Positions 1-8,761 of a DNA stretch of 8,761 nucleotides are shown one piece after another. Source of the DNA: a virus (taxonomy: Duplodnaviria; Heunggongvirae; Uroviricota; Caudoviricetes). The notes below the pieces were generated by a model that saw nothing but the letters and a program-made list of their open reading frames with translations, searched no databases and was not told where the DNA came from. A program made the translations under genes and the position numbers. Location of the stretch: IMG/VR virus record IMGVR_UViG_2645727563_000007, one strand, 5' to 3'. Numbering within the stretch: position 1 is the first letter of the stretch; the number at the start of each line of letters is the position of its first letter.

Positions 1-81
1 ATGTCAAGCTGTTTTTTAATAGATAGCACAAAATGCTAAAGATGCCCCTATACCATCTCGTACAGGGGGTTTTGGAGGGGT

Positions 82-270
82 TTAGCGGGGGTCGGTATGG
101 TTATCTGTTCTGGTCCTGTCCTTGAGGTCAAACGACCATTCACGACCAAACAATCTGAACACGATAAACACTCTGACGATGAAATAGCGAAGTAGTAGGC
201 CTGCAATAAGTCCAATACCTCCACCAGCCCAAACATCAGGTGACCCCAGTTCAGGAGGGAGATTTACCAT
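82..270 (-). CDS. small predicted single-pass membrane protein (62 aa from internal ATG; the ORF extends to 306)
   Basis: ORF on - strand. The internal ATG (plus 268-270) is preceded by AGGA (revcomp of plus 277-280) at 6-nt spacing; the upstream ATG at 306 has no Shine-Dalgarno. Product MVNLPPELGSPDVWAGGGIGLIAGLLLRYFIVRVFIVFRLFGREW... has one hydrophobic helix then a charged tail. No family recognised. Confidence 0.3.
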   Translation of the reverse strand: MVNLPPELGSPDVWAGGGIGLIAGLLLRYFIVRVFIVFRLFGREWSFDLKDRTRTDNHTDPR

Positions 271-433
271 TAAATTTCCTGTGTGCAATGCAATACCATG
301 TGACATACATAGTTGATTCGGTTAGTTGGGCTTGTACCAACCCCTATCGAATAAACCTCATAGCCACGCCTCATATTTTACTCTCCCCATAGAACCATTA
401 TACCACAGATGTTAATAAAATGTTAAAAAATGC

Positions 434-462
434 TTGACATTAGTCTTTGAAAATGCTAGTAT
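434..462 (+). promoter_or_regulatory. sigma70-type promoter: -35 TTGACA (434-439), 17-bp spacer, extended -10 TGcTAGTAT (454-462)
   Basis: Perfect -35 hexamer, optimal 17-bp spacer, TG-extended -10 with conserved A2 and T6, AT-rich upstream tract; about 50 bp upstream of the first ATG of the 512-1823 operon. Confidence 0.45.
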
Positions 463-511
463 TGTCTATATGGTTAACAGAGAATTAACAATTATAAGGA
501 CTGGCTTATGA

Positions 512-1069
512 ATGAACGACAGAGAATTTAGAGCGATGCTTCAGGCATCAAAAGAACGCAACAAGCACAACTCCTACGCTTACACAAACAATCCCACCAG
601 CTACGAATTACCCAAGTTCACCAAGAAAGAACGCAAAGGCATTGACGAAGTAATTCGGGCAATTACACCGAGGAGTCGTTATATGTCAACCAGAAAGAGC
701 ACCCAGAACACTATTAAAAATTATTTGGCTAACTTTGACAGTTACGAGCAGTTACCAAGCAAGCTTGATGATATTTTTATTGGGTTCTGTAGAAGTGAAG
801 GTCACCCGAAATACAACAAAAAACTATTTTATCTTCTAAAGAATCTTGATGAAATTAACTCAGCTACCGTGACAAATTATCTTCAGCGACAAGCAACCAG
901 ACTTAGCTACGAATTACCAAGCGATAAATATTGTGCATTGCTTGCTGTAATGTGTGCAAAGCTAATTGGTATTGTTGAACATCATATTGCCGTTGGGAAT
1001 ATTGAGCCAATGGAAAACGAGCAACCAGATTTCGAGTTTGACCCGTATTTAGTTACAGAGGAATTTTAA
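512..1069 (+). CDS. hypothetical protein, 185 aa (first gene of a coupled four-gene operon)
   Basis: ORF track; AAGGA (496-500) upstream of ATG 512; stop codon directly abuts the next start (TAA 1067-1069, ATG 1070). No domain recognised by eye. Confidence 0.6.
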   Translation: MNDREFRAMLQASKERNKHNSYAYTNNPTSYELPKFTKKERKGIDEVIRAITPRSRYMSTRKSTQNTIKNYLANFDSYEQLPSKLDDIFIGFCRSEGHPKYNKKLFYLLKNLDEINSATVTNYLQRQATRLSYELPSDKYCALLAVMCAKLIGIVEHHIAVGNIEPMENEQPDFEFDPYLVTEEF

Positions 1070-1348
1070 ATGAAGAAACACACTTTGACCCGTATTTCAG
1101 AGGAAGCTTTTAACGAGCTTGCCAGAATTAAACGAGCTACTAACCTGCCTCATCAGACTGTTATGCAGCTTGCAATTGCTAAAGAGGTCACTGAGTCGGA
1201 TTTACTTAAATATCCAGTCTCTAAAGGTCGTAAGCACATCCGAATTACTCAGGACGCTTTAGATACTTTGAAGGCACTTAACGGCTTTAAGATTGATATT
1301 GCCCGTCTATTGAGTCTTAAGATTCACAAGTTAGCGATGGAGGTCTGA
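1070..1348 (+). CDS. ribbon-helix-helix (CopG/Arc-like) DNA-binding protein, apparently two tandem RHH units, 92 aa
   Basis: SD AGAGGA (1057-1062) 7 nt upstream. N-terminus MKKHTLTRISEEAFNELARIKRATNLPHQTVMQLAIAKEV has the beta-strand / helix / helix pattern of CopG-type RHH proteins; a second similar unit RKHIRITQDALDTLKALNGFKIDIARLLSLKI follows. Confidence 0.5.
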   Translation: MKKHTLTRISEEAFNELARIKRATNLPHQTVMQLAIAKEVTESDLLKYPVSKGRKHIRITQDALDTLKALNGFKIDIARLLSLKIHKLAMEV

Positions 1349-1350
1349 TT

Positions 1351-1623
1351 ATGAAGCAATGGCGAGATGATATTAAACGGTTCTTTGCAACTTACTTCAT
1401 GATTAATTACGAAACAGGAATGCTTGAATGGATTGATGGCGGAGAGGTTAAGACAAGAGATGATGCTTACGGTAATCCAATGATTCGTTATGGCACTCGT
1501 GATTATTATGTGAAGTATGTCATCTGGTTTTTGCATCATGAAGTTCAGGCAACTAAAAAGATTATCTTCAGGGATGGTAATAAAAGAAATTGCCACCCAA
1601 ACAATTTACTACAGGAGATTTAA
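1351..1623 (+). CDS. HNH_3-like (homing-endonuclease-type) small protein, 90 aa; canonical catalytic His apparently substituted
   Basis: SD GGAGG (1339-1343); start 2 bp after the previous stop. C-terminal ...YVKYVIWFLHHEVQATKKIIFRDGNKRNCHPNNL resembles the HNH_3 pattern (hR.vW ... vDHiDGN..NN...NL), but the DH preceding DGN reads FR. Confidence 0.4.
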   Translation: MKQWRDDIKRFFATYFMINYETGMLEWIDGGEVKTRDDAYGNPMIRYGTRDYYVKYVIWFLHHEVQATKKIIFRDGNKRNCHPNNLLQEI

Positions 1624-1823
1624 TGTTATGTATTAAATTCGAATATTTGACAGATAAAATGATTAAGCATGTATCAGACCTGCTCATCAAAGAAGATGGT
1701 TTCGGTGATGTTTGCAATCCAAAAGATATCTTCATTCACGCCACCAGCCCAAACGAAACATTAAAAACAGCAGTTACAGCGGAATGGTTTGAACGAAATA
1801 AGACAGAATTAGGTTATTGGTAG
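1623..1823 (+). CDS. hypothetical protein, 66 aa (start reassigned to ATG 1623)
   Basis: ATG at 1623 overlaps the previous stop (TAATG); SD AGGAG (1613-1617) at 5-nt spacing. The track's longer ORF from 1590 uses a TTG start inside the upstream gene with no SD. Confidence 0.45.
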   Translation: MLCIKFEYLTDKMIKHVSDLLIKEDGFGDVCNPKDIFIHATSPNETLKTAVTAEWFERNKTELGYW

Positions 1824-2002
1824 TCCGAGACTTTAAGAGAAATTAGAAAAAAAGCTTCTCAGGCGCTCTCAATCGCATTCTAACGCAAAAAACTATCTTA
1901 TTTTAGGGTGGGTAATACCACTGTACAGGCTACCCCTGAAAAAGACTGTTTAGCTCGTTACAGAGCGATTGAGGAGGTCTGGTAAAAAGGAGATTTTAAG
2001 AA

Positions 2003-2326
2003 ATGAACAATTTCCCGCTACAGATTTTCGTTGATAGCGACACCGCTATGATGGTGCAAAGCTTCATTGATGCAGGTATTAGCATTGACTTTGACAGGCT
2101 GTTAAAGCTAATGGCTGAGAACTCAGAAACAATCGAAGATTTTATTCAGGAAATTGAAACTGGTGAACCACGTTTTATGTTTCCTGTTACCGACTCAAGC
2201 ATGAAAAGGCTTGTTATCGAAGAAACTAACAAATACAGCGTTAGCCCTGAAAAATATCTCAAGGCGGCTATAGCAATTTTGTACAGCGATAATATTCTGG
2301 TGACGGATTCGAAGGTGGTGCATTAA
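2003..2326 (+). CDS. hypothetical acidic protein, 107 aa
   Basis: ORF with AAGGAG (1987-1992) upstream of ATG 2003. By hand count about 18 Asp+Glu against about 9 Lys+Arg. No family recognised. Confidence 0.55.
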   Translation: MNNFPLQIFVDSDTAMMVQSFIDAGISIDFDRLLKLMAENSETIEDFIQEIETGEPRFMFPVTDSSMKRLVIEETNKYSVSPEKYLKAAIAILYSDNILVTDSKVVH

Positions 2327-2403
2327 TGGGTTTAATAATTGCTTGGACGCTGTTAGGGTTATTTGTTGGTTGCTGGATGGGTAACACAGTAAATAGAAAT
2401 TGA
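2326..2403 (+). CDS. small hydrophobic peptide, 25 aa (MGLIIAWTLLGLFVGCWMGNTVNRN), candidate
   Basis: ATG overlaps the stop of the 107-aa gene (TAATG at 2324-2328), suggesting translational coupling. One predicted transmembrane helix. Below the ORF-track length cutoff, so supported only by coupling and hydrophobicity. Confidence 0.3.
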   Translation: MGLIIAWTLLGLFVGCWMGNTVNRN

Positions 2404-2427
2404 TGTTACCAATCTGTTAAAAAGCTG

Positions 2428-2456
2428 TTGACAAATAACCTTGAGCATGACATAAT
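2428..2456 (+). promoter_or_regulatory. sigma70-type promoter: -35 TTGACA (2428-2433), 17-bp spacer, -10 CATAAT (2451-2456)
   Basis: Perfect -35, 17-bp spacer, 5/6 -10, preceded by an A-rich UP-like tract (TTAAAAAG). No long ORF follows for about 430 bp. Confidence 0.5.
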
Positions 2457-2658
2457 TGTATATATGAGGATAGTCTTCTATCCGAAGTCTATAGGGAGAG
2501 CAATTCTCCTTGAATTAAAATATTAATCGTCTCTACATCGATGATAACTATATTCTGAGTTGGAAAGGTGCAATGCTTTTCGTCATGGCCTTTCAGTTTA
2601 GTCTGAGAGGCTATCTCAAAAAGTGCTTAATCATTCATTATTGAACCCTTACAGCTTT

Positions 2659-2688
2659 GCCCTAACTCATGATTAGGGCGTTTTCTTT
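2659..2688 (+). terminator. intrinsic terminator: stem GCCCTAA / TTAGGGC, 7-nt loop, then GTTTTCTTT
   Basis: Perfect 7-bp stem (2659-2665 / 2673-2679) followed by a U-rich tract (2681-2688). Confidence 0.5.
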
Positions 2689-2757
2689 AAGAGTTTTTAA
2701 ACAGAGCTTTTAAAGAAAGTTTTTCCTGAAACTTCGTTAACGTTAAAGCAAACCTTC

Positions 2758-2794
2758 AAAGCCCTTTACAGATTCAATGTTTAGGGCTTTTCTT
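2758..2794 (+). terminator. second terminator-like hairpin: AAAGCCCT / AGGGCTTT, 17-nt loop, then TTTCTT
   Basis: 8-bp stem (2758-2765 / 2783-2790) with U-rich 3' side. The long loop lowers confidence. The 3' half (TTAGGGCTTTTCTTAATAGAG) is a diverged copy of the 2673-2697 terminator region. Confidence 0.3.
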
Positions 2795-2890
2795 AATAGA
2801 GCATCTTTAATAAATCGTTAAGTCATCTTCTAAGTGTATTGGCGTTGAAGGTGCTCTATTAAGAAATAACCACACTTAGAGGAAATTATA

Positions 2891-3601
2891 ATGGCCAACG
2901 ATATTTACATTAACGGTAAAAAGATTGATAGCTTCGGTGACTGGTCACCAACGACTGAACATCCAGCTATCACTATTCAGCGTCAAGAGCATGACAAGCG
3001 TATTAAGCTTGAGCAAGAAATCCGAATGTCACCAAAGGTAATTTCCTTTGTGACTCCTGAACCTCAAGAGATGCCCGATATCTGCAAGGGTGAATCACTA
3101 CTTGAGCTTGAAAAGAAATATTACCCACTGCTGAAAGCACAGCGTATTAAACTTGATGACGCTTACAGCAAAGTTACCTTGATGCAATCAGCTATTGAGC
3201 CGTCAGAATTTGAGATTCAGGATGAATTGTCACAGAAACCATTTGTCTATTACCAATACGAAGACAATGATGGTTTTGGTATTTATCCAGAAAGCATCCC
3301 AGCCGTGATTAGTAGTCTTCCTGATGGATATCGAATTGTGAAGATGGTTAAAGCTTCAAGGGGTGCTGGTCAGTTTGTTTACATGACCGATAAAAGCGAT
3401 GAAGAAGTCTGTGAAATTGCCAGACAGAACATCTTGGCATCACGTAACAAGCAGCTTGATAGTGCTAAGTTGTGTCTTTCAAGAGAGCTTCAGGCTATGA
3501 AAGAGCTTGTGAAAGAATATGAAGATGCTAAGAAGGTTGCTATGCAGGCTGATATTGAGCAGCTTACGAAGATTTCTCAGAAGTATAGCAAGGTACTTTA
3601 A
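2891..3601 (+). CDS. hypothetical protein, 236 aa, predicted coiled-coil C-terminal region
   Basis: ORF with SD AGAGGA (2878-2883) 7 nt upstream of ATG 2891. No family recognised. Confidence 0.6.
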   Translation: MANDIYINGKKIDSFGDWSPTTEHPAITIQRQEHDKRIKLEQEIRMSPKVISFVTPEPQEMPDICKGESLLELEKKYYPLLKAQRIKLDDAYSKVTLMQSAIEPSEFEIQDELSQKPFVYYQYEDNDGFGIYPESIPAVISSLPDGYRIVKMVKASRGAGQFVYMTDKSDEEVCEIARQNILASRNKQLDSAKLCLSRELQAMKELVKEYEDAKKVAMQADIEQLTKISQKYSKVL

Positions 3602-3625
3602 CTAATAATTAAAAGGAGGTGATGA

Positions 3626-3829
3626 ATGATTGATTTAACAGAACGCTATGAACTTATTAAAGCAATTAGCGAGAGATTGAAAGAACAACCCAACAAACCA
3701 AAACGAATCAAATCATCCACCTCTAGGCAAAATAGCAGAATCAGAAGAATCGCTAAATGGTGTCTTGATAAATTACCAAGTGATTGTCAGATTGTCGGTG
3801 AAGATGGTAATTATTATCTGGTTAGGTAA
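3626..3829 (+). CDS. hypothetical small basic protein, 67 aa
   Basis: Strong SD AAGGAGG (3613-3619) 6 nt upstream of ATG 3626. Lys/Arg-rich centre (KPKRIKSSTSRQNSRIRRIAKW) suggests nucleic-acid binding. No family recognised. Confidence 0.5.
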   Translation: MIDLTERYELIKAISERLKEQPNKPKRIKSSTSRQNSRIRRIAKWCLDKLPSDCQIVGEDGNYYLVR

Positions 3830-3855
3830 CAAGAATTGGTTGGGTAAAAATCAAC

Positions 3856-3896
3856 GGGAGAGATTATCGAGTGACATCGGTAGCTCTCCCTTTTTT
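3856..3896 (+). terminator. intrinsic terminator: GGGAGAG...CTCTCCC stem with inner TATCGA/TCGGTA pairing, then TTTTTTGT
   Basis: 7-bp GC-rich outer stem (3856-3862 / 3884-3890), an inner 6-bp helix (3865-3870 / 3877-3882, one G.U), and a T6 tract (3891-3896) directly after the 67-aa gene. Confidence 0.55.
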
Positions 3897-3926
3897 GTAT
3901 ATGAACACTTAAGAGGTGAAACATGA

Positions 3927-6059
3927 ATGAGCAAATTCACAGTTGATAGTTTTATCGTTGAGCTAGGCTTCAGCGAGAACGTTATTAAGGGCTTGCAAAG
4001 AGTTGAAAAGGCAGCTTTGCAGTCAGCACAAAGAATTGAAAAGAACCTAAATAAAGGTTTCAGGATTAATACAAAGCAGCTTGATAGTAATTTAACGGCT
4101 TCTTTAAAGTCAATGGAAGGGAAGATTAATAAGACCTTTGACCGTCTGGAAGCTAGAGCACGAAGCACAAAAGTTTTCCAGTTTACCACCAGATTTAATG
4201 ACACTGTTAATCCTCCAAAACAACCGAGACAGCCACGAATTAGCGGCAACAGAGCAATCACAGCAGCTTATTCAGCTAATATGACCAAGCTGAAAGGTCT
4301 TAACCCAATTGTCGAGAAATACATCAAATCTCAGTTTTACGGGCTATCTGCTAAAGCTGGGTCAATGGATAATTCAAAATTCAATGAGAAGTTGGCTCAA
4401 TTAAATGCTTCGGTCAGAGAAGCAATTGCTAAAGCCAGAGGCCATACATCCACCAGCATTAACGGTGACAGAGCAGCTAGCAGTCTTGATAATCTGTCTT
4501 TAGCGGCGGTTAAAACAGCAGGTGCATTTATCAGCTTTCAGGCTGTACTATCCGCTTATCAGCGAGTAATGGAAGTTGGCCTTCAACGTGCATCATCGGA
4601 AAGAAGTATTGATTTCGTATTCGGTGACCAAAGTACACAGGTCAAAAAGTTCATTCAAGATTTAACTCAGATTACTGGGATGGACACAACCGAAACACAA
4701 GCACAGTTTGCTTCATTTGGTGCATCTGCAAAGAACACGATGGGTCTTGAAGGGTCAGAAGAGTTATTTAAAAACCTTACAGGTTATGCTCGTTTAATGG
4801 GTCGTTCAGATGAGCAGATTCAAAGAGCATTAACCGCAGTGTCGCAGATGGCTTCTAAGGGTCAGGTGATGTCTGAGGAGCTGAAGGGGCAACTATCTGA
4901 AGCTTTACCGGGTGCTACTCAGGCATTTGCAAAGGCTTTAGGTCTGACTGAAAAACAGCTTTTCGATAAGATGAAAAATGGTGATGTTAAAGCCTCTGAT
5001 GCACTCCCTAAATTTGCTAAAGAACTTGGTTCACAGATTAATTCAAGAGGTGGCTGGAAAGCTATTCAGGACTCTACGCAGACAATGCTAGGGAACTTGA
5101 AGAATACTTGGAACAACTCACTAACGGATATTTTCAAAGGTTCTGAAGATGGTTTGCAGGACTTCACAAGAAGCTTGACCAATCTTTTAAACGCTCTTGG
5201 TGGAACTGGTAAAACATTAGGTGAAAGTTTTGGTAGCTTGATGACTGATATGTCACATGGTGTCGATTCATTGACTGATATTTCTTACAAGGTGAGAGCT
5301 TTCTTTGATGAGGTGACATTAGCTTACCGTTCACTAAATGACACTCAGAAAAAAATTGTTGACGGTTTATCTGATGGGTTAATTGATGGTTTGAAGATGC
5401 TTGCTGTAGCTGTTACTGCTCAAAAGGCTGCAAATGTAGCTGGAGGCTTGTTAAACCTTGCAAATGCTGTTACTTCATTCGGTGATGCTGTTAATAAAGC
5501 TAAAGCTGGCAAGGCTGGTTCTTCAGGTGGTGCGCTAAGTAAAGTCGGTAGAGTTGTCCTTTATGCTGAGTTGGTGAACTTTGCTCTTGATAATTTAAAC
5601 CCTGAAGCTGCTAAGAATCCGAACTTACATCAATCAGGTATTGGCACAGAAACAAACTTCAACCCTGAATACAAAGGCGATTCATCTAAACCAAACCAAA
5701 TTAATGAGGGATGGGCTAAGATTGGTAGTTCTATCGCTGACTGGTTTAATGGTGCAGCTAATAAAATTGCTAACTTCCAAGAGCCAATGAGTAACCTTGT
5801 TAATAACACACAATCAACTCCACCAGCTATCACAGGTGACATGGTTAATAGCAATGCTCAACTTGCAATGACTATTAGTGAACTATCACGCAAGGTAGAC
5901 GCTTTAACAGTAGAAGCTAAGAAGCCCTTGTCAGTTAATATCACTGGTGAAGCAACTGTTAGACCGGATGAACCAGCTTTCTTTAATTTCAGTCAATCGG
6001 CTAATGACCAGTTCACGCAGGATATGCTCTTAAGTTCAAGCTATCCAGAGGAAGAATGA
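3927..6059 (+). CDS. phage tail tape-measure-domain protein, 710 aa
   Basis: SD AAGAGGTG (3911-3918). Central segment ...QMASKGQVMSEELKGQLSEALPGATQAFAKALGLTEKQLFDKMKNGDVKASDALPKFAKELG... matches the conserved tape-measure motif. Predicted helical N-terminal part and Gly/Ala/Ser/Asn-rich C-terminal part are typical of these proteins. Confidence 0.8.
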   Translation: MSKFTVDSFIVELGFSENVIKGLQRVEKAALQSAQRIEKNLNKGFRINTKQLDSNLTASLKSMEGKINKTFDRLEARARSTKVFQFTTRFNDTVNPPKQPRQPRISGNRAITAAYSANMTKLKGLNPIVEKYIKSQFYGLSAKAGSMDNSKFNEKLAQLNASVREAIAKARGHTSTSINGDRAASSLDNLSLAAVKTAGAFISFQAVLSAYQRVMEVGLQRASSERSIDFVFGDQSTQVKKFIQDLTQITGMDTTETQAQFASFGASAKNTMGLEGSEELFKNLTGYARLMGRSDEQIQRALTAVSQMASKGQVMSEELKGQLSEALPGATQAFAKALGLTEKQLFDKMKNGDVKASDALPKFAKELGSQINSRGGWKAIQDSTQTMLGNLKNTWNNSLTDIFKGSEDGLQDFTRSLTNLLNALGGTGKTLGESFGSLMTDMSHGVDSLTDISYKVRAFFDEVTLAYRSLNDTQKKIVDGLSDGLIDGLKMLAVAVTAQKAANVAGGLLNLANAVTSFGDAVNKAKAGKAGSSGGALSKVGRVVLYAELVNFALDNLNPEAAKNPNLHQSGIGTETNFNPEYKGDSSKPNQINEGWAKIGSSIADWFNGAANKIANFQEPMSNLVNNTQSTPPAITGDMVNSNAQLAMTISELSRKVDALTVEAKKPLSVNITGEATVRPDEPAFFNFSQSANDQFTQDMLLSSSYPEEE

Positions 6060-6072
6060 TTTCTTATATATC

Positions 6073-6137
6073 CGTGTGCTACGTGAAATCTTCTGAACAG
6101 ATATACCCACCAAAAATTATTTTTTACGTAGCTCACG
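6073..6137. repeat. imperfect inverted repeat: 16-nt arms (6073-6088 / 6122-6137) around a 33-nt spacer
   Basis: CGTGTGCTACGTGAAA and TTTTACGTAGCTCACG pair at 15 of 16 positions (one U.U mismatch, one G.U); located just downstream of the tape-measure stop codon. Confidence 0.5.
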
Positions 6138-6158
6138 CTTAACAGAGAAAATACATAT

Positions 6159-6208
6159 ATTTCAAAGGCTTGGTTAAAAATGATTAAAATACACTAAGCC
6201 TTTGAAAT
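6159..6208. repeat. perfect 13-bp inverted repeat ATTTCAAAGGCTT / AAGCCTTTGAAAT (extendable to 16 bp), ending 2 nt before the next gene's SD
   Basis: Arms at 6159-6171 and 6196-6208 are exact reverse complements; three further pairs (one G.U) extend the helix; SD AAGGAG at 6211-6216. Confidence 0.55.
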
Positions 6209-6222
6209 CAAAGGAGAATTTA

Positions 6223-6996
6223 ATGATTTACTCTAATCAGATTCGTTACAGTGGCAAAGATGGCATCTATTTCCACTTAAGAGATAATGTAGATGCCTTC
6301 TTAACCTTATCAGCAACTGAAAATATGGAATTTGACAGCCCTATGCAGGTAACTACACAGAACATGCAATCAGGGCAAACCGTTACAGATAATGTGCAAA
6401 GAGCACCCAGAACAATCACTATTAGTGGTGTCGTTGTAGTTGGCTATGAAGGAAGCTTATTATTAACTCGTCAGGGTCAATTAGTAGAAAACTTCATTGA
6501 CACTCTCGAAAGCTGGCGTGACCAGAAGCAAATTATTTCGGTTATCTGTAAGGACGGAATTAAAATTGATGATTCCATTATTACGAGTTTTAAAGCCTCT
6601 AAAGATGTTGGAATTTCAAATGGTCTAAGAATCCAGCTAACTTTTCAGGAAATTAACTTCAAAGCCATTGTAGGGCAAACTGATGTTTCAGCAGCTACTG
6701 GCAAAACTGCTACCACGAATGACGGTGGTGCTACCAGTAAGAAGAATGCGGGTAACGTGACTACTGAACGCAATAACGCACCTATGCTGATGTGTCAGGA
6801 ACTGTACAGTTACTCAGCATCTGAGCTATCTGATGAAGCGCTAAGGGTCCGTAGCAATTGCTCTAAAAATGTCACGGTGAAAGATGGTGTAAGCACCTTC
6901 ACAGCCTCAGCTAATGAGCAGGCTTCAAAAGTGCTTAAGTCGGGTAATGCTTTACGGAAGTTTTCTGTGAATCCGAATAAGAAGGGCACTTATTGA
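6223..6996 (+). CDS. hypothetical protein, 257 aa; by position possibly a distal tail (Dit-like) protein
   Basis: Start set at ATG 6223 with SD AAGGAG (6211-6216) rather than the track's TTG 6202. Immediately follows the tape-measure gene, the usual position of Dit in siphovirus tail modules; sequence looks beta-rich. Function is inferred from position only. Confidence 0.55.
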
Positions 6997-7000
6997 GACA

Positions 7001-7023
7001 TAAAAAGGGGCTTCATAGCCCCT
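7001..7023 (-). terminator. intrinsic terminator for the recombinase gene (stem AGGGGCT / AGCCCCT, 4-nt loop, U5 on the - strand)
   Basis: On the - strand the RNA reads AGGGGCUAUGAAGCCCCUUUUUAUG immediately after the recombinase stop codon (plus 7029-7031). On the + strand the U-tract is poor, so it is mainly unidirectional. Confidence 0.6.
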
Positions 7024-7028
7024 GAAAA

Positions 7029-8549
7029 TTACAGTTGATAAGCGTCAATATCCAGTAGCTCTTTATCAGCAATTTCAAAGATTGGTGACCCATCATTTAG
7101 CGGTAACGGGTTTGTAGGTATGGTGATTTCAGTGTCGTTCTGTAGCGTTACAGTTACCGAATCCTTACCCAATGTAAGCCCTTTTAGATGCTTGGACAAA
7201 ATCAACTGACACTCGACACGACCCACTTTAGTTGTCAGGTCAATATCTTTAAGCTGGGGTAGTTCCTTATCAGTGAGTGAAGCCTTACGCCTCATGTTAT
7301 CAATCGTGGTCTGTAGCTCTGTGCGCTTCTGGTTCAGTTCCTTAAGCTGAATTTTTAGTTCATCAATATCATCCATCTCAAGAAGTAGGGCGGTAGCTTT
7401 CTTGATTCTGGTTGTGACAATTTCAACCTCATGCTGTAGAGATGCAATCTCCCCCTCTGCTTCTCCATCATTCCCCACGTCAATCATTCCTAGAAAATTT
7501 TCAAGCATCCACTTATCAAACGGTTTACGCTTCAACGGAGGAACATCACAGCGACCATCAAGATGGTTATTGCACCGATAAACGCCCTGATACTTATTCT
7601 TAGTCCCTGTAGGGTGAACACTAGCCCCGCACTGACACCTAAACAGACCTTTGAAGATGTTAATCGTTAATGGATTATCACTTGCAGGTGTACGGCCTAT
7701 ACGGTTCTTACCAAGAATCTCTTGAGCTTTATTGAACGTTGAAGCATCTATAGCGGCTTCGTAGTAGTTCGGTATAGCGGGGCGGTCATTACGTTGTGAT
7801 GCTGGTAACGTGCCTATCGTTGTCTCTGACCTTAAGATGGTGCGTACAGAGTGAACACTAAACCCGTTAGCATCTTTACGGCGACTAAACGACTTTATAC
7901 CGTTGCTTTGAAGGTGACGGGCGATGTTATGCAGACTTTCACCACTTAGCAGCAGCTTGAAAATCAGTCTTACAGTCTCAGCGTGTTCATTGCACTTGAA
8001 AGTATCGGGGTCAATCCATCCGGGAACATTTCTTGTAAGACGCTGTTCACCAGCAAGGGCAAGCTTTGCACGTTGTTCCCATTTCTGACTAACACGGAAA
8101 GACTTCTGTTTACTCTCCTGATGCGCTATGTAGCTTTTAACCCGCTGAATGATTGAGATTCCTAAATCATCGGATAGAGCATCCCTTGTGTAGATTAGCC
8201 CATCCTGTAGAGTGTGAATCTCGATACCATGAGCAATAATGCGATTCATCAAGGCTTCTGTTTCAAGATGTTCAAGGCGGCCTATGCGGTCGATAGCTTC
8301 GACTAACAGAACTGTACCTTCTGAAAACTCCCCACTTTCAATACGGGAAAGCATATCCCCAAATTGCCCTGACAAGTGCTTACCTTTGTAACCGGATAGA
8401 CCCTCATCATTGAAAGATGCTACTACTTGAGCATCGCTATTCTTCTTCAACCATTGTTTGAACAGGTCGTTTTGTCGTCTGGTTGAATCTGCACCTTCAG
8501 CGCCTTGTATGGCTGAACTGTACCGAAGGTATGTAATTACGTGTCTCAT
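7029..8549 (-). CDS. large serine recombinase (serine integrase), 506 aa
   Basis: N-terminal resolvase-type catalytic domain (YLRYSSAIQ with the catalytic Ser; DEGLSGYKG; LLVEAIDRIGR), followed by a recombinase domain, a Cys-rich zinc-ribbon (FRCQCGASVHPTG...YRCNNHLDGRCD) and a C-terminal coiled-coil. SD GGGAG (revcomp of 8559-8563) 9 nt upstream of ATG. Confidence 0.9.
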   Translation of the reverse strand: MRHVITYLRYSSAIQGAEGADSTRRQNDLFKQWLKKNSDAQVVASFNDEGLSGYKGKHLSGQFGDMLSRIESGEFSEGTVLLVEAIDRIGRLEHLETEALMNRIIAHGIEIHTLQDGLIYTRDALSDDLGISIIQRVKSYIAHQESKQKSFRVSQKWEQRAKLALAGEQRLTRNVPGWIDPDTFKCNEHAETVRLIFKLLLSGESLHNIARHLQSNGIKSFSRRKDANGFSVHSVRTILRSETTIGTLPASQRNDRPAIPNYYEAAIDASTFNKAQEILGKNRIGRTPASDNPLTINIFKGLFRCQCGASVHPTGTKNKYQGVYRCNNHLDGRCDVPPLKRKPFDKWMLENFLGMIDVGNDGEAEGEIASLQHEVEIVTTRIKKATALLLEMDDIDELKIQLKELNQKRTELQTTIDNMRRKASLTDKELPQLKDIDLTTKVGRVECQLILSKHLKGLTLGKDSVTVTLQNDTEITIPTNPLPLNDGSPIFEIADKELLDIDAYQL

Positions 8550-8639
8550 GGTGATAAACTCCCATGCAATTGATTCTCATTTAAAGATGAACTTATAAAC
8601 GTTATGGCTAATGCTACAATGCCGAATAGCTACAATACA

Positions 8640-8761
8640 ATGACCCTTGATTTACCTCGCCGCTTCCCCTGGCCGACGTTACTTTCGGTCTGCATTCATG
8701 GTGCTGTTGTGGCGGGTCTGCTCTATACCTCGGTACATCAGGTTATTGAACTACCTGCGCC
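8640..8761 (+). CDS. tonB: TonB (energy transducer), N-terminal 40 codons; partial, continues beyond the window
   Basis: Translation MTLDLPRRFPWPTLLSVCIHGAVVAGLLYTSVHQVIELPA is recognised as the N-terminal signal-anchor region of Escherichia-type TonB; GC content is visibly higher than the upstream intergenic DNA. Confidence 0.9.
   Translation, partial: MTLDLPRRFPWPTLLSVCIHGAVVAGLLYTSVHQVIELPA

Follow-up and report, generated by a model that had tools for sequence, protein, structure and literature searches.

We analysed an 8,761-nucleotide stretch of DNA, IMG/VR record IMGVR_UViG_2645727563_000007, which is an entire contig and is called the window below. Most likely, it covers the rightmost 8.6 kb of a compact mobile island of Escherichia coli that measures about 11.6 kb and is inserted at the start of the chromosomal tonB gene. 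Because the window ends with the contig, the left flank of this element had to be deduced from syntenic relatives. A series of plus-strand open reading frames (ORFs) precedes a minus-strand gene for a 506-aa protein at 7029-8549 (Table 1). The ORFs named in an initial annotation, made from the sequence alone, are all present and intact (236, 67, 710 and 257 aa, and 506 aa on the minus strand). That annotation had described a 710-aa tape-measure gene followed by a 257-aa gene, a recombinase and a chromosomal junction, and both profile matches and identity to tonB confirmed the arrangement. Domain scans likewise agreed with its remark that head, terminase, fibre and lysis genes are missing: we found no head, terminase, sheath, tube, fibre or lysis gene in the window. 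Neither a tRNA nor an Rfam family was detected anywhere in the whole window.

We identify the 710-aa product as a tape measure protein (TMP), since it matches Pfam TMP_3 (7e-18, 65.4 bits, cut-off 41), TIGR02675 (4e-14, 52.6 bits, cut-off 21.35), PHROG 4036 (7e-84) and PDB chain 9ndy_F, 'Tape measure protein gp017' (gp17 of phage Bas63; 3e-67). Its 257-aa neighbour is the tube initiator (TI) of Felixounavirus tails, with matches to Pfam Dit_like (PF21821; 2.6e-20, 73.3 bits, cut-off 24.2) and, over residues 5-257, to PDB chain 9ndy_A, 'Tube initiator protein gp018' (Bas63 gp18; 2e-122). Both proteins therefore have a solved homologue in a single entry, PDB 9NDY. The fold comparison that had been proposed for the 236-aa protein gave an AlphaFold2 (AF2) model of long helices (pLDDT 67.6), for which Foldseek returned nothing from the PDB below E 0.3. 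PDB 9NDY is a cryo-EM structure of Bas63 (JohannRWettstein), a Felixounavirus (PMC12609058). The N-terminal part of TI resembles tube proteins and, as a hexamer, serves in this virion as the adaptor between hub and tube; it is followed by a C-terminal extension of ~100 aa that crosses the baseplate. Of TMP, the final 25 residues alone are ordered; their contacts are with the hub and with the puncturing-apparatus helices (PMC12609058).

Apart from a weak HNH match, similarity between the island and phages is restricted to these two genes, and within them to particular segments. Window DNA matches more than 200 Felix O1-like phages, solely at 3918-4039, 6031-6060, 6247-6756 and 6943-6994. All phage database matches belong to Ounavirinae, which are phages of 81-90 kb, and no integrase was present in the two genomes inspected. 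Positions 1-3926 (sensitive blastn) and the 236-aa and 185-aa proteins (tblastn) were compared with phages, and the sole match was a marginal one to an Aeromonas phage (E 0.01). Residues 1-40 of TMP are ~78% identical to the phage protein and its last 10 residues 100% identical, with 5-35% identity over the remainder (about 50% in the core domain). TI is 95-100% identical to the phage protein over residues 1-180, 20-35% over residues 181-240 and 82% over the last 17 residues. The TMP interior is an island-specific lineage, and the C-terminal extension of TI is divergent save for its last 17 aa. The conserved parts of the two proteins appear to correspond to the contact regions of the Bas63 structure. 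Judged from these alignments, TMP and TI most likely fit a helper phage where they contact its components and differ from it in their other parts.

The DNA of the TI N-domain differs from that of phage skuden at 7 of 498 nt (98.6% identity, dS 0.057). The corresponding DNA of 9 other islands is 78-95% identical to that of the window, and all of them are further away than skuden. Hence the TI N-domain was recently exchanged between island and phage, and such recombination in turn implies that the two were co-resident in one cell. In other islands the TI N-domain is 83-91% identical to phages, and one of them has an additional TMP segment in common with phages. At the N-terminus of TMP the protein is conserved despite saturated synonymous sites, a pattern which indicates that selection constrains this part of TMP to stay phage-like. 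A more telling figure than absolute tail length is that the TMPs of the islands (682-723 aa) are all shorter than those of the phages (735-742 aa). At 0.15 nm per residue, 710 aa corresponds to about 106 nm, which agrees with the ~100 nm estimated in the initial annotation, and the window TMP would give a tail about 4-5 nm shorter than the phage's. With typical tube spacing, 4-5 nm is about one tube ring.

Felix O1-like TMP and TI sequence was also found in GenBank GU169904.1, 'Staphylococcus phage SA1' (147 kb), where a stretch of about 1.9 kb reaches 88% identity to the DNA of an E. coli island. Such a match suggests that the record is chimeric or contaminated.

The 506-aa protein is a large serine recombinase: its Resolvase, Recombinase and Zn_ribbon_recom domains all score above the Pfam cut-offs, and it matches the PHROG 95 integrase family (2e-77). 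It is 92-95% identical to its counterparts in relatives at the tonB site and about 34% identical to those in relatives at the yecE site. Identity to E. coli tonB begins at 8638-8640, and the last 124 nt of the window are tonB. The empty site of K-12 reads ...ACTTCA-ATGACCCTTGA-TTTACC..., with the 11-nt core present once. This core, which is the first 11 nt of the tonB frame, is found at attR in the window (8640-8650) and at attL of the relatives L001 and L002; relatives carry it at both ends, with flanks identical to the right end of the window. In the reconstructed attP a dyad, CCGAATAG...CTATTCGG, surrounds the core, and the predicted junction includes CTACAATACAATGACCCTTGAATGAAGTCTATTC. The full element in syntenic relatives is about 11.6 kb and extends about 3 kb further left than the window. 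Two relatives contain, from yciI to tonB, a small serine recombinase, a Dam-type methylase, the genes of the window and the large recombinase. The initial annotation had considered that a complete structural module might lie just to the left. No structural gene was found in the left ~3 kb of the syntenic relatives, which contains the small resolvase and the Dam methylase and is bordered by attL and yciI. Conservation of the left-most ~300 nt extends to relatives inserted at other sites; hence the resolvase and cargo region belongs to the element.

The cargo of the left end is variable, being either a Dam-type methylase with a C-terminal helix-turn-helix (HTH) domain or an AP2-domain protein. 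The small serine recombinase of this end is annotated on opposite strands in L001 and L002 (recombinase and cargo loci: L001 3441-4007 and 5008-5676; L002 3623-4171; L006 5548-6072). At the other end, insertion within the first 11 nt of the tonB frame means that tonB must be transcribed from the right end of the element, where a candidate promoter, TTGATT-18-TATAAA, is located at 8571-8600. On the left side, the native Fur-regulated promoter of tonB now reads into the element and is followed by a 4-codon stub (ATG ACC CTT GAA TGA; L001 2920-2985). A scan of the new tonB upstream region for Fur boxes gave two 11/19 sites (8566 and 8588), a score equal to that of the native box and near background. 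The detachment of tonB could alter iron regulation and uptake, as well as sensitivity to TonB-dependent phages and colicins.

We surveyed 5,426 complete E. coli genomes for the island. At least 80% of the window is present at 86-93% identity in 21 of them, always adjoining tonB. Strains that bear the island include E. coli E8 (NZ_CP104526) and DJH_183sputum (NZ_CP123593). The region 2891-6996 has megablast matches in many more (501 of the 5,426), in up to five places per genome, all chromosomal and none on plasmids. The TMP-TI architecture occurs at three or more sites, namely at tonB, in yecE and between ymdF and wrbA, and each insertion site has its own large serine recombinase, those at yecE and at ymdF/wrbA being about 34% identical to that of the window. 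The element measures about 11.6-12.5 kb in many unrelated strains at three sites. Homologues of the 185-aa and 236-aa proteins are also present in Shigella, E. albertii, E. fergusonii and a few Salmonella. The gene slots of the islands hold several deeply diverged alleles that are shuffled independently (identity among islands 40-95% for TMP, 24-93% for the 236-aa protein and 41-97% for the 67-aa protein), and N- and C-terminal alleles of TMP and TI also recombine. The TMP-TI pair is the sole constant feature of all island variants. Ratios of nonsynonymous to synonymous substitution (dN/dS) are 0.16-0.36 for TMP, 0.11-0.25 for TI, 0.08 for the 67-aa gene and about 0.4 for the 236-aa gene, and all tested genes are under purifying selection.

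Recurrence at several sites, intact ORFs and purifying selection together indicate a living family of mobile elements and not a decaying prophage end. A prophage origin would make TMP, TI and the integrase the survivors of a Felix O1-like temperate phage whose other genes were deleted, and this would account for phage tail genes adjoining an integrase at a chromosomal junction as well as for the insertion sequences seen in some relatives. We regard such an origin as highly improbable. It does not agree with precise attL and attR and a constant size in many strains, with genes that are all intact and selected, or with non-tail genes that have no phage homologues; the phage relatives, moreover, are solely Ounavirinae, lacking integrases in the two genomes inspected. 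The deletion remnant that the initial annotation had offered as one alternative is contradicted by the same compact gene set and size in hundreds of genomes and at several att sites. The comparison of related strains that it had called for showed a conserved gene set of constant size and order that is not variably truncated.

In the relatives L017 and L018 (ymdF/wrbA and tonB sites), a 325-aa HTH_36 protein and three small genes replace the block of the 185-aa and 92-aa genes. In some relatives, small additional genes (102 or 138 aa) separate the 236-aa gene from the 67-aa gene. Replication or regulation modules thus seem to be exchangeable, by analogy with the PLEs of Vibrio cholerae.

PLEs are the closest parallel to the island by architecture. 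They are V. cholerae islands that integrate by a large serine recombinase and parasitize the virulent myovirus ICP1 (PMC12987554). A TMP gene and a chaperone gene are present in every PLE and a hub gene in some, and their products replace the ICP1 proteins in PLE virions; the resulting tails are 10 nm shorter, and deletion of tmp lowers transduction by 96-99.9% (PMC12987554; 2026). The island studied here is likewise a compact chromosomal element with a large serine recombinase, and its related phages are virulent myoviruses. Like a PLE, it has its own TMP and a hub-proximal baseplate component and lacks tube, sheath and fibres; its TMP is shorter than that of the phage and has an interior of low identity to that of the helper. 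The two differ in that the host here is E. coli and the presumed helper a Felixounavirus. The second tail gene of the island encodes TI and not the hub protein BhuB, and its N-domain is nearly identical to that of the helper, whereas PLE BhuB is 41% identical to the ICP1 protein. Finally, the island has no recognisable chaperone, RepA_N initiator or capsid-remodelling gene. A chaperone was sought in the 236-aa and 67-aa proteins and in the 102-aa and 138-aa proteins of relatives, and none was detected.

In the phages themselves TMP and TI are adjacent and in the same order as in the island. The phage genes, however, abut or overlap within a full structural operon, after two chaperone genes, whereas those of the island are parted by a 163-nt spacer with a hairpin, preceded by a terminator and flanked by island-specific genes and the recombinase. 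The common features are the gene order, the TI N-domain and the TMP termini.

Other known satellites resemble the island less. Barth et al. (2023) described 224 putative E. coli satellites with a TMP and a baseplate gene next to an integrase (PMC10448857). Chimeric tails had thus been predicted in 2023 for other E. coli satellites. They are of similar size (10-14 kb) and also miss most tail genes, and one of them has the order 67-aa gene, TMP, 'phage baseplate protein', integrase. At the opposite end they have a small serine recombinase that is 61% identical to that of the island family (E 2e-76). However, they have their own major capsid and decoration proteins, a RepA_N initiator and mostly a tyrosine integrase next to tRNA-Thr, none of which was found in the window or in inspected relatives; the TMP, baseplate and 67-aa proteins of the two groups have no similarity by tblastn. 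Membership in this family was rejected, as only the small resolvase is shared. PICMIs are minimalist satellites of virulent vibriophages with reduced gene content, according to the abstract of their description (PMC10803314). Likened by that description, they agree with our island in small size, in dependence on a virulent phage (here presumed) and in having no capsid-remodelling genes; they differ in that the abstract mentions no tail genes. Scans with Pfam, PHROG and NCBIfam detected none of the hallmarks of PICI, cf-PICI or P4-like elements that were sought (AlpA/Stl-type regulator, Pri-Rep primase-replicase, small terminase, Sid/Psu, capsid and head-tail connector genes). Full-text literature searches on satellites, tape measure proteins, chimeric tails and Felix O1/Felixounavirus returned no description of this island family.

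On balance, we consider it somewhat probable that the island is a satellite of virulent Felixounaviruses and builds chimeric tails. Infection would activate the island, which would excise and replicate. TMP and TI of the island would then be produced and would seed tails on the hub, tube, sheath, baseplate and fibres of the helper, giving chimeric tails shorter by about one ring. Island DNA would leave in helper-derived particles and integrate in a new cell by means of the recombinase. Diverted tail assembly, perhaps with a contribution of the 236-aa and 67-aa proteins, would lower the phage yield. The second alternative of the initial annotation was a compact element contributing just a tail-length determinant and its partner to a helper phage. 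This proposal fits all of the evidence and the experimental PLE precedent (PMC12987554), and a Felixounavirus is the likely helper; the satellite lifestyle, with excision, packaging and transfer, is the part that we infer.

Several observations weigh against a satellite of this kind. Scans with Pfam, PHROG and NCBIfam recognised no capsid-size or packaging gene, small terminase or replication initiator in the window, no RepA_N or other replication domain in any window protein (Pfam and NCBIfam) and no recognisable tail assembly chaperone. Comparison of the whole skuden genome with the window gave TMP, TI and a weak HNH match only; no promoter or pac signal common to the two was seen, and exact matches of 15-17 nt were at chance level. 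Island DNA of 11.6 kb is a poor fit to a phage head of 86-88 kb. Packaging as concatemers in full-size heads, as in PICMIs going by the summary account of them, is only a guess. A strong terminator-like hairpin is placed directly before the TMP gene, about 30 nt from its start, and in relatives a hairpin and T-run persist with stems that differ in sequence. Either read-through or a promoter of their own thus seems necessary for the tail genes to be expressed. Some related islands have insertion sequences in the TMP or TI genes. The reconstructed attP junction had no match in IMG/VR or in JGI metagenome contigs, which is a weak negative. The matches to a window protein in IMG/VR appear, from their contig identifiers, to be proviruses of isolate genomes and not viromes, and we did not count them as evidence of packaging.

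The lack of packaging and capsid genes could also be expected of an island devoted to defence, in which TMP and TI act as dominant-negative decoys that poison helper tails. Such an island would not be packaged and would spread by other means or by rare generalised transduction. Similarity limited to the interfaces suits the need of a decoy, and the left end carries variable cargo such as the Dam-type methylase. Blocking of tail assembly is, in addition, an established form of defence, known from the Tai systems (PMC11364771) and from Rta of PLE11, an 80-aa inhibitor of the phage TMP (PMC12987554). We nevertheless think a purely defensive island unlikely. A poison needs neither a TMP of near-phage length under purifying selection along its full length (0.16-0.36) nor a conserved TMP core domain, and the spread of a non-conjugative element with its own recombinases over several sites and species argues for efficient horizontal transfer. 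Moreover, a PADLOC scan gave no defence-model match to the proteins scanned except a weak ZorA-like one within TMP (3e-4); the library was the 2023 version, and Tai and Rta are not among its models. PLEs combine defence with transfer, and by that analogy a decoy effect may accompany the satellite lifestyle instead of competing with it as an explanation.

During DNA entry, TMPs act at the inner membrane. On a mobile island that had simply acquired phage tail genes, the pair could accordingly have a role outside tails, as a trigger or sensor of abortive infection or in superinfection block at DNA entry, or it could have no function. The function of most island proteins is unassigned, and the small ORFs at 82-306 and 2327-2404 are of membrane type, as a lifestyle of another sort might lead one to expect. 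Purifying selection, however, excludes a lack of function. The pair is syntenic with that of the phage, retains exactly the hub- and tube-contacting surfaces of the solved virion and stays constant across island variants while other slots vary. We therefore judge another lifestyle to be distinctly unlikely, and prefer the chimeric-tail satellite of Felixounaviruses.

Among the remaining sequence features (Table 1), the spacer between TMP and TI contains an island-specific cassette. It is present upstream of TI in 9/9 islands examined and was not found in the phage genome. The same cassette also occurs upstream of TMP in L006, L009, L010 (copies at 2733-2797 and 4980-5042) and L012, and in these islands it flanks the TMP gene on both sides. 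Possible roles are a module boundary at which recombination exchanges TMP cassettes, or regulation as an RNA or DNA element. The 564-nt stretch without a long ORF is probably a regulatory region and may exert leader or small-RNA control.

The 185-aa protein has no Pfam or NCBIfam match. Its homologues form 1,089 clusters at 90% identity, and its AF2 model was unusable (pLDDT 46.8). A 14-nt exact direct repeat within the gene (599-612 and 905-918) encodes a repeated SYELP motif, hinting at an internal duplication. The 92-aa protein, whose alleles are 36-98% identical among islands, matches DndE below the cut-off (0.005-0.1) and is possibly a small DNA-binding regulator. The 90-aa protein scores just below the cut-off for Pfam HNH_3 (7.7e-5; 22.7 bits against 24.8), matches PHROG 959 and has a weak match to a homing endonuclease of skuden (E 6e-6). 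Its gene is not in L001, is divergent in L005 and L006 and has a 41%-identical version in yecE-site islands, and in this distribution it behaves like a free-standing insert of the homing-endonuclease kind at a module boundary. Alleles of the 107-aa protein are 26-83% identical among islands.

The 236-aa protein had no Pfam, PHROG, NCBIfam, PADLOC, PDB or phage match. Its family comprises only 22 clusters at 50% identity; a profile of divergent alleles searched against PDB and Pfam gave coiled-coil noise only, and no distant relatives were found in IMG/VR or metagenomes. NCBI/PGAP names this protein and thousands of its relatives 'transposase', a label that we rejected for want of Pfam, NCBIfam, PHROG, PDB or fold support and that looks like a propagated annotation error. 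The 67-aa protein, which is basic and strongly conserved, matched nothing in Pfam, PHROG, NCBIfam or PDB and did not resemble garuso_116/117, the chaperones of the phage; neither a chaperone role nor an Rta-like inhibitory one could be shown for it. The initial annotation had remarked that the 236-aa and 67-aa genes do not look like standard tail-assembly chaperones, and we saw neither a frameshift arrangement nor a chaperone family match for them.

Table 1. Genes, attachment site and regulatory-looking sequences of the 8,761-nt window
Feature	Position	Strand	Remarks
Small ORF, 62-74 aa, one predicted membrane segment	82-306	-	Leftward; equivalent ORF annotated by PGAP in L001
Divergent promoter-like region before early block	397-462		Consensus matches only
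Promoter-like site TTAACA-18-TATAAT	426-397	-	11/12 consensus match
Promoter-like site TTGACA-17-TAGTAT	434-462	+	10/12 consensus match
185-aa protein	512-1069	+	Island-specific; first of early block
92-aa protein	1070-1348	+	Weak DndE-like match only
90-aa HNH-type endonuclease-like gene	1351-1623	+	
107-aa protein	2003-2326	+	
Small hydrophobic 25-aa peptide MGLIIAWTLLGLFVGCWMGNTVNRN	2327-2404	+	Overlaps stop codon of 107-aa gene
564-nt stretch without long ORF	2327-2890	+	Promoter-like site, hairpins
Best sigma-70-like promoter of window, TTGACA-17-CATAAT	2428-2456	+	Near-consensus
Terminator-like hairpin	2658-2680	+	In 564-nt stretch
Long ~80-nt hairpin abutting ribosome-binding site of 236-aa gene	2789-2866	+	dG -33.9 kcal/mol, z -7.7
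236-aa coiled-coil protein	2891-3601	+	Island-specific
67-aa basic protein	3626-3829	+	Directly upstream of TMP
Intrinsic-terminator-like hairpin and U-run between 67-aa and TMP genes	3856-3896	+	dG -21.1 kcal/mol, z -5.5
TMP, 710 aa	3927-6059	+	Profile matches
Cassette of ~65 nt, GCTACGTGAAAT...N33...TTACGTAGCTCACGCTTAA, in TMP-TI spacer	6078-6142	+	Island-specific
Stable hairpin just before TI ribosome-binding site	6159-6208	+	dG -19.3 kcal/mol, z -6.1
TI, Dit-like, 257 aa	6223-6996	+	ATG 6223; 264 aa from TTG 6202
Terminator-like hairpin between convergent TI and recombinase genes	7006-7023	-	After recombinase gene
Large serine recombinase, 506 aa	7029-8549	-	Presumed integrase for tonB site
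attR	8621-8650		Half-site CCGAATAGCTACAATACA on element side and 11-nt core ATGACCCTTGA at 8640-8650
5' end of chromosomal tonB	8640-8761	+	Detached from native promoter by element

More broadly, we tentatively advance the possibility that these islands are undescribed and very common minimal satellites of E. coli and Shigella. They would use a plug-in TMP-TI pair whose helper-matched ends serve as adaptors while the interiors evolve freely, and would thereby divert helper tails and limit the phage. New here are the family, the host and the helper; the mechanism itself has been demonstrated once so far, in PLE. If true, E. coli would offer a genetically tractable parallel to the chimeric tails of PLEs, the chimeric-tail strategy would have arisen independently in several satellite lineages, and the 2026 discovery would reach beyond Vibrio to the best genetic model organism. 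Among the classic phages for Salmonella typing and biocontrol are those of the Felix O1 type, which are also represented in E. coli therapy and reference collections, for example by Bas63 in BASEL. About every eleventh complete E. coli genome carries such an island, which, if it parasitizes or blocks these phages, would affect host-range predictions and therapy outcomes. The natural chimeras map the residues of TMP and TI that must match the helper, and the Bas63 structure can be used to test this map.

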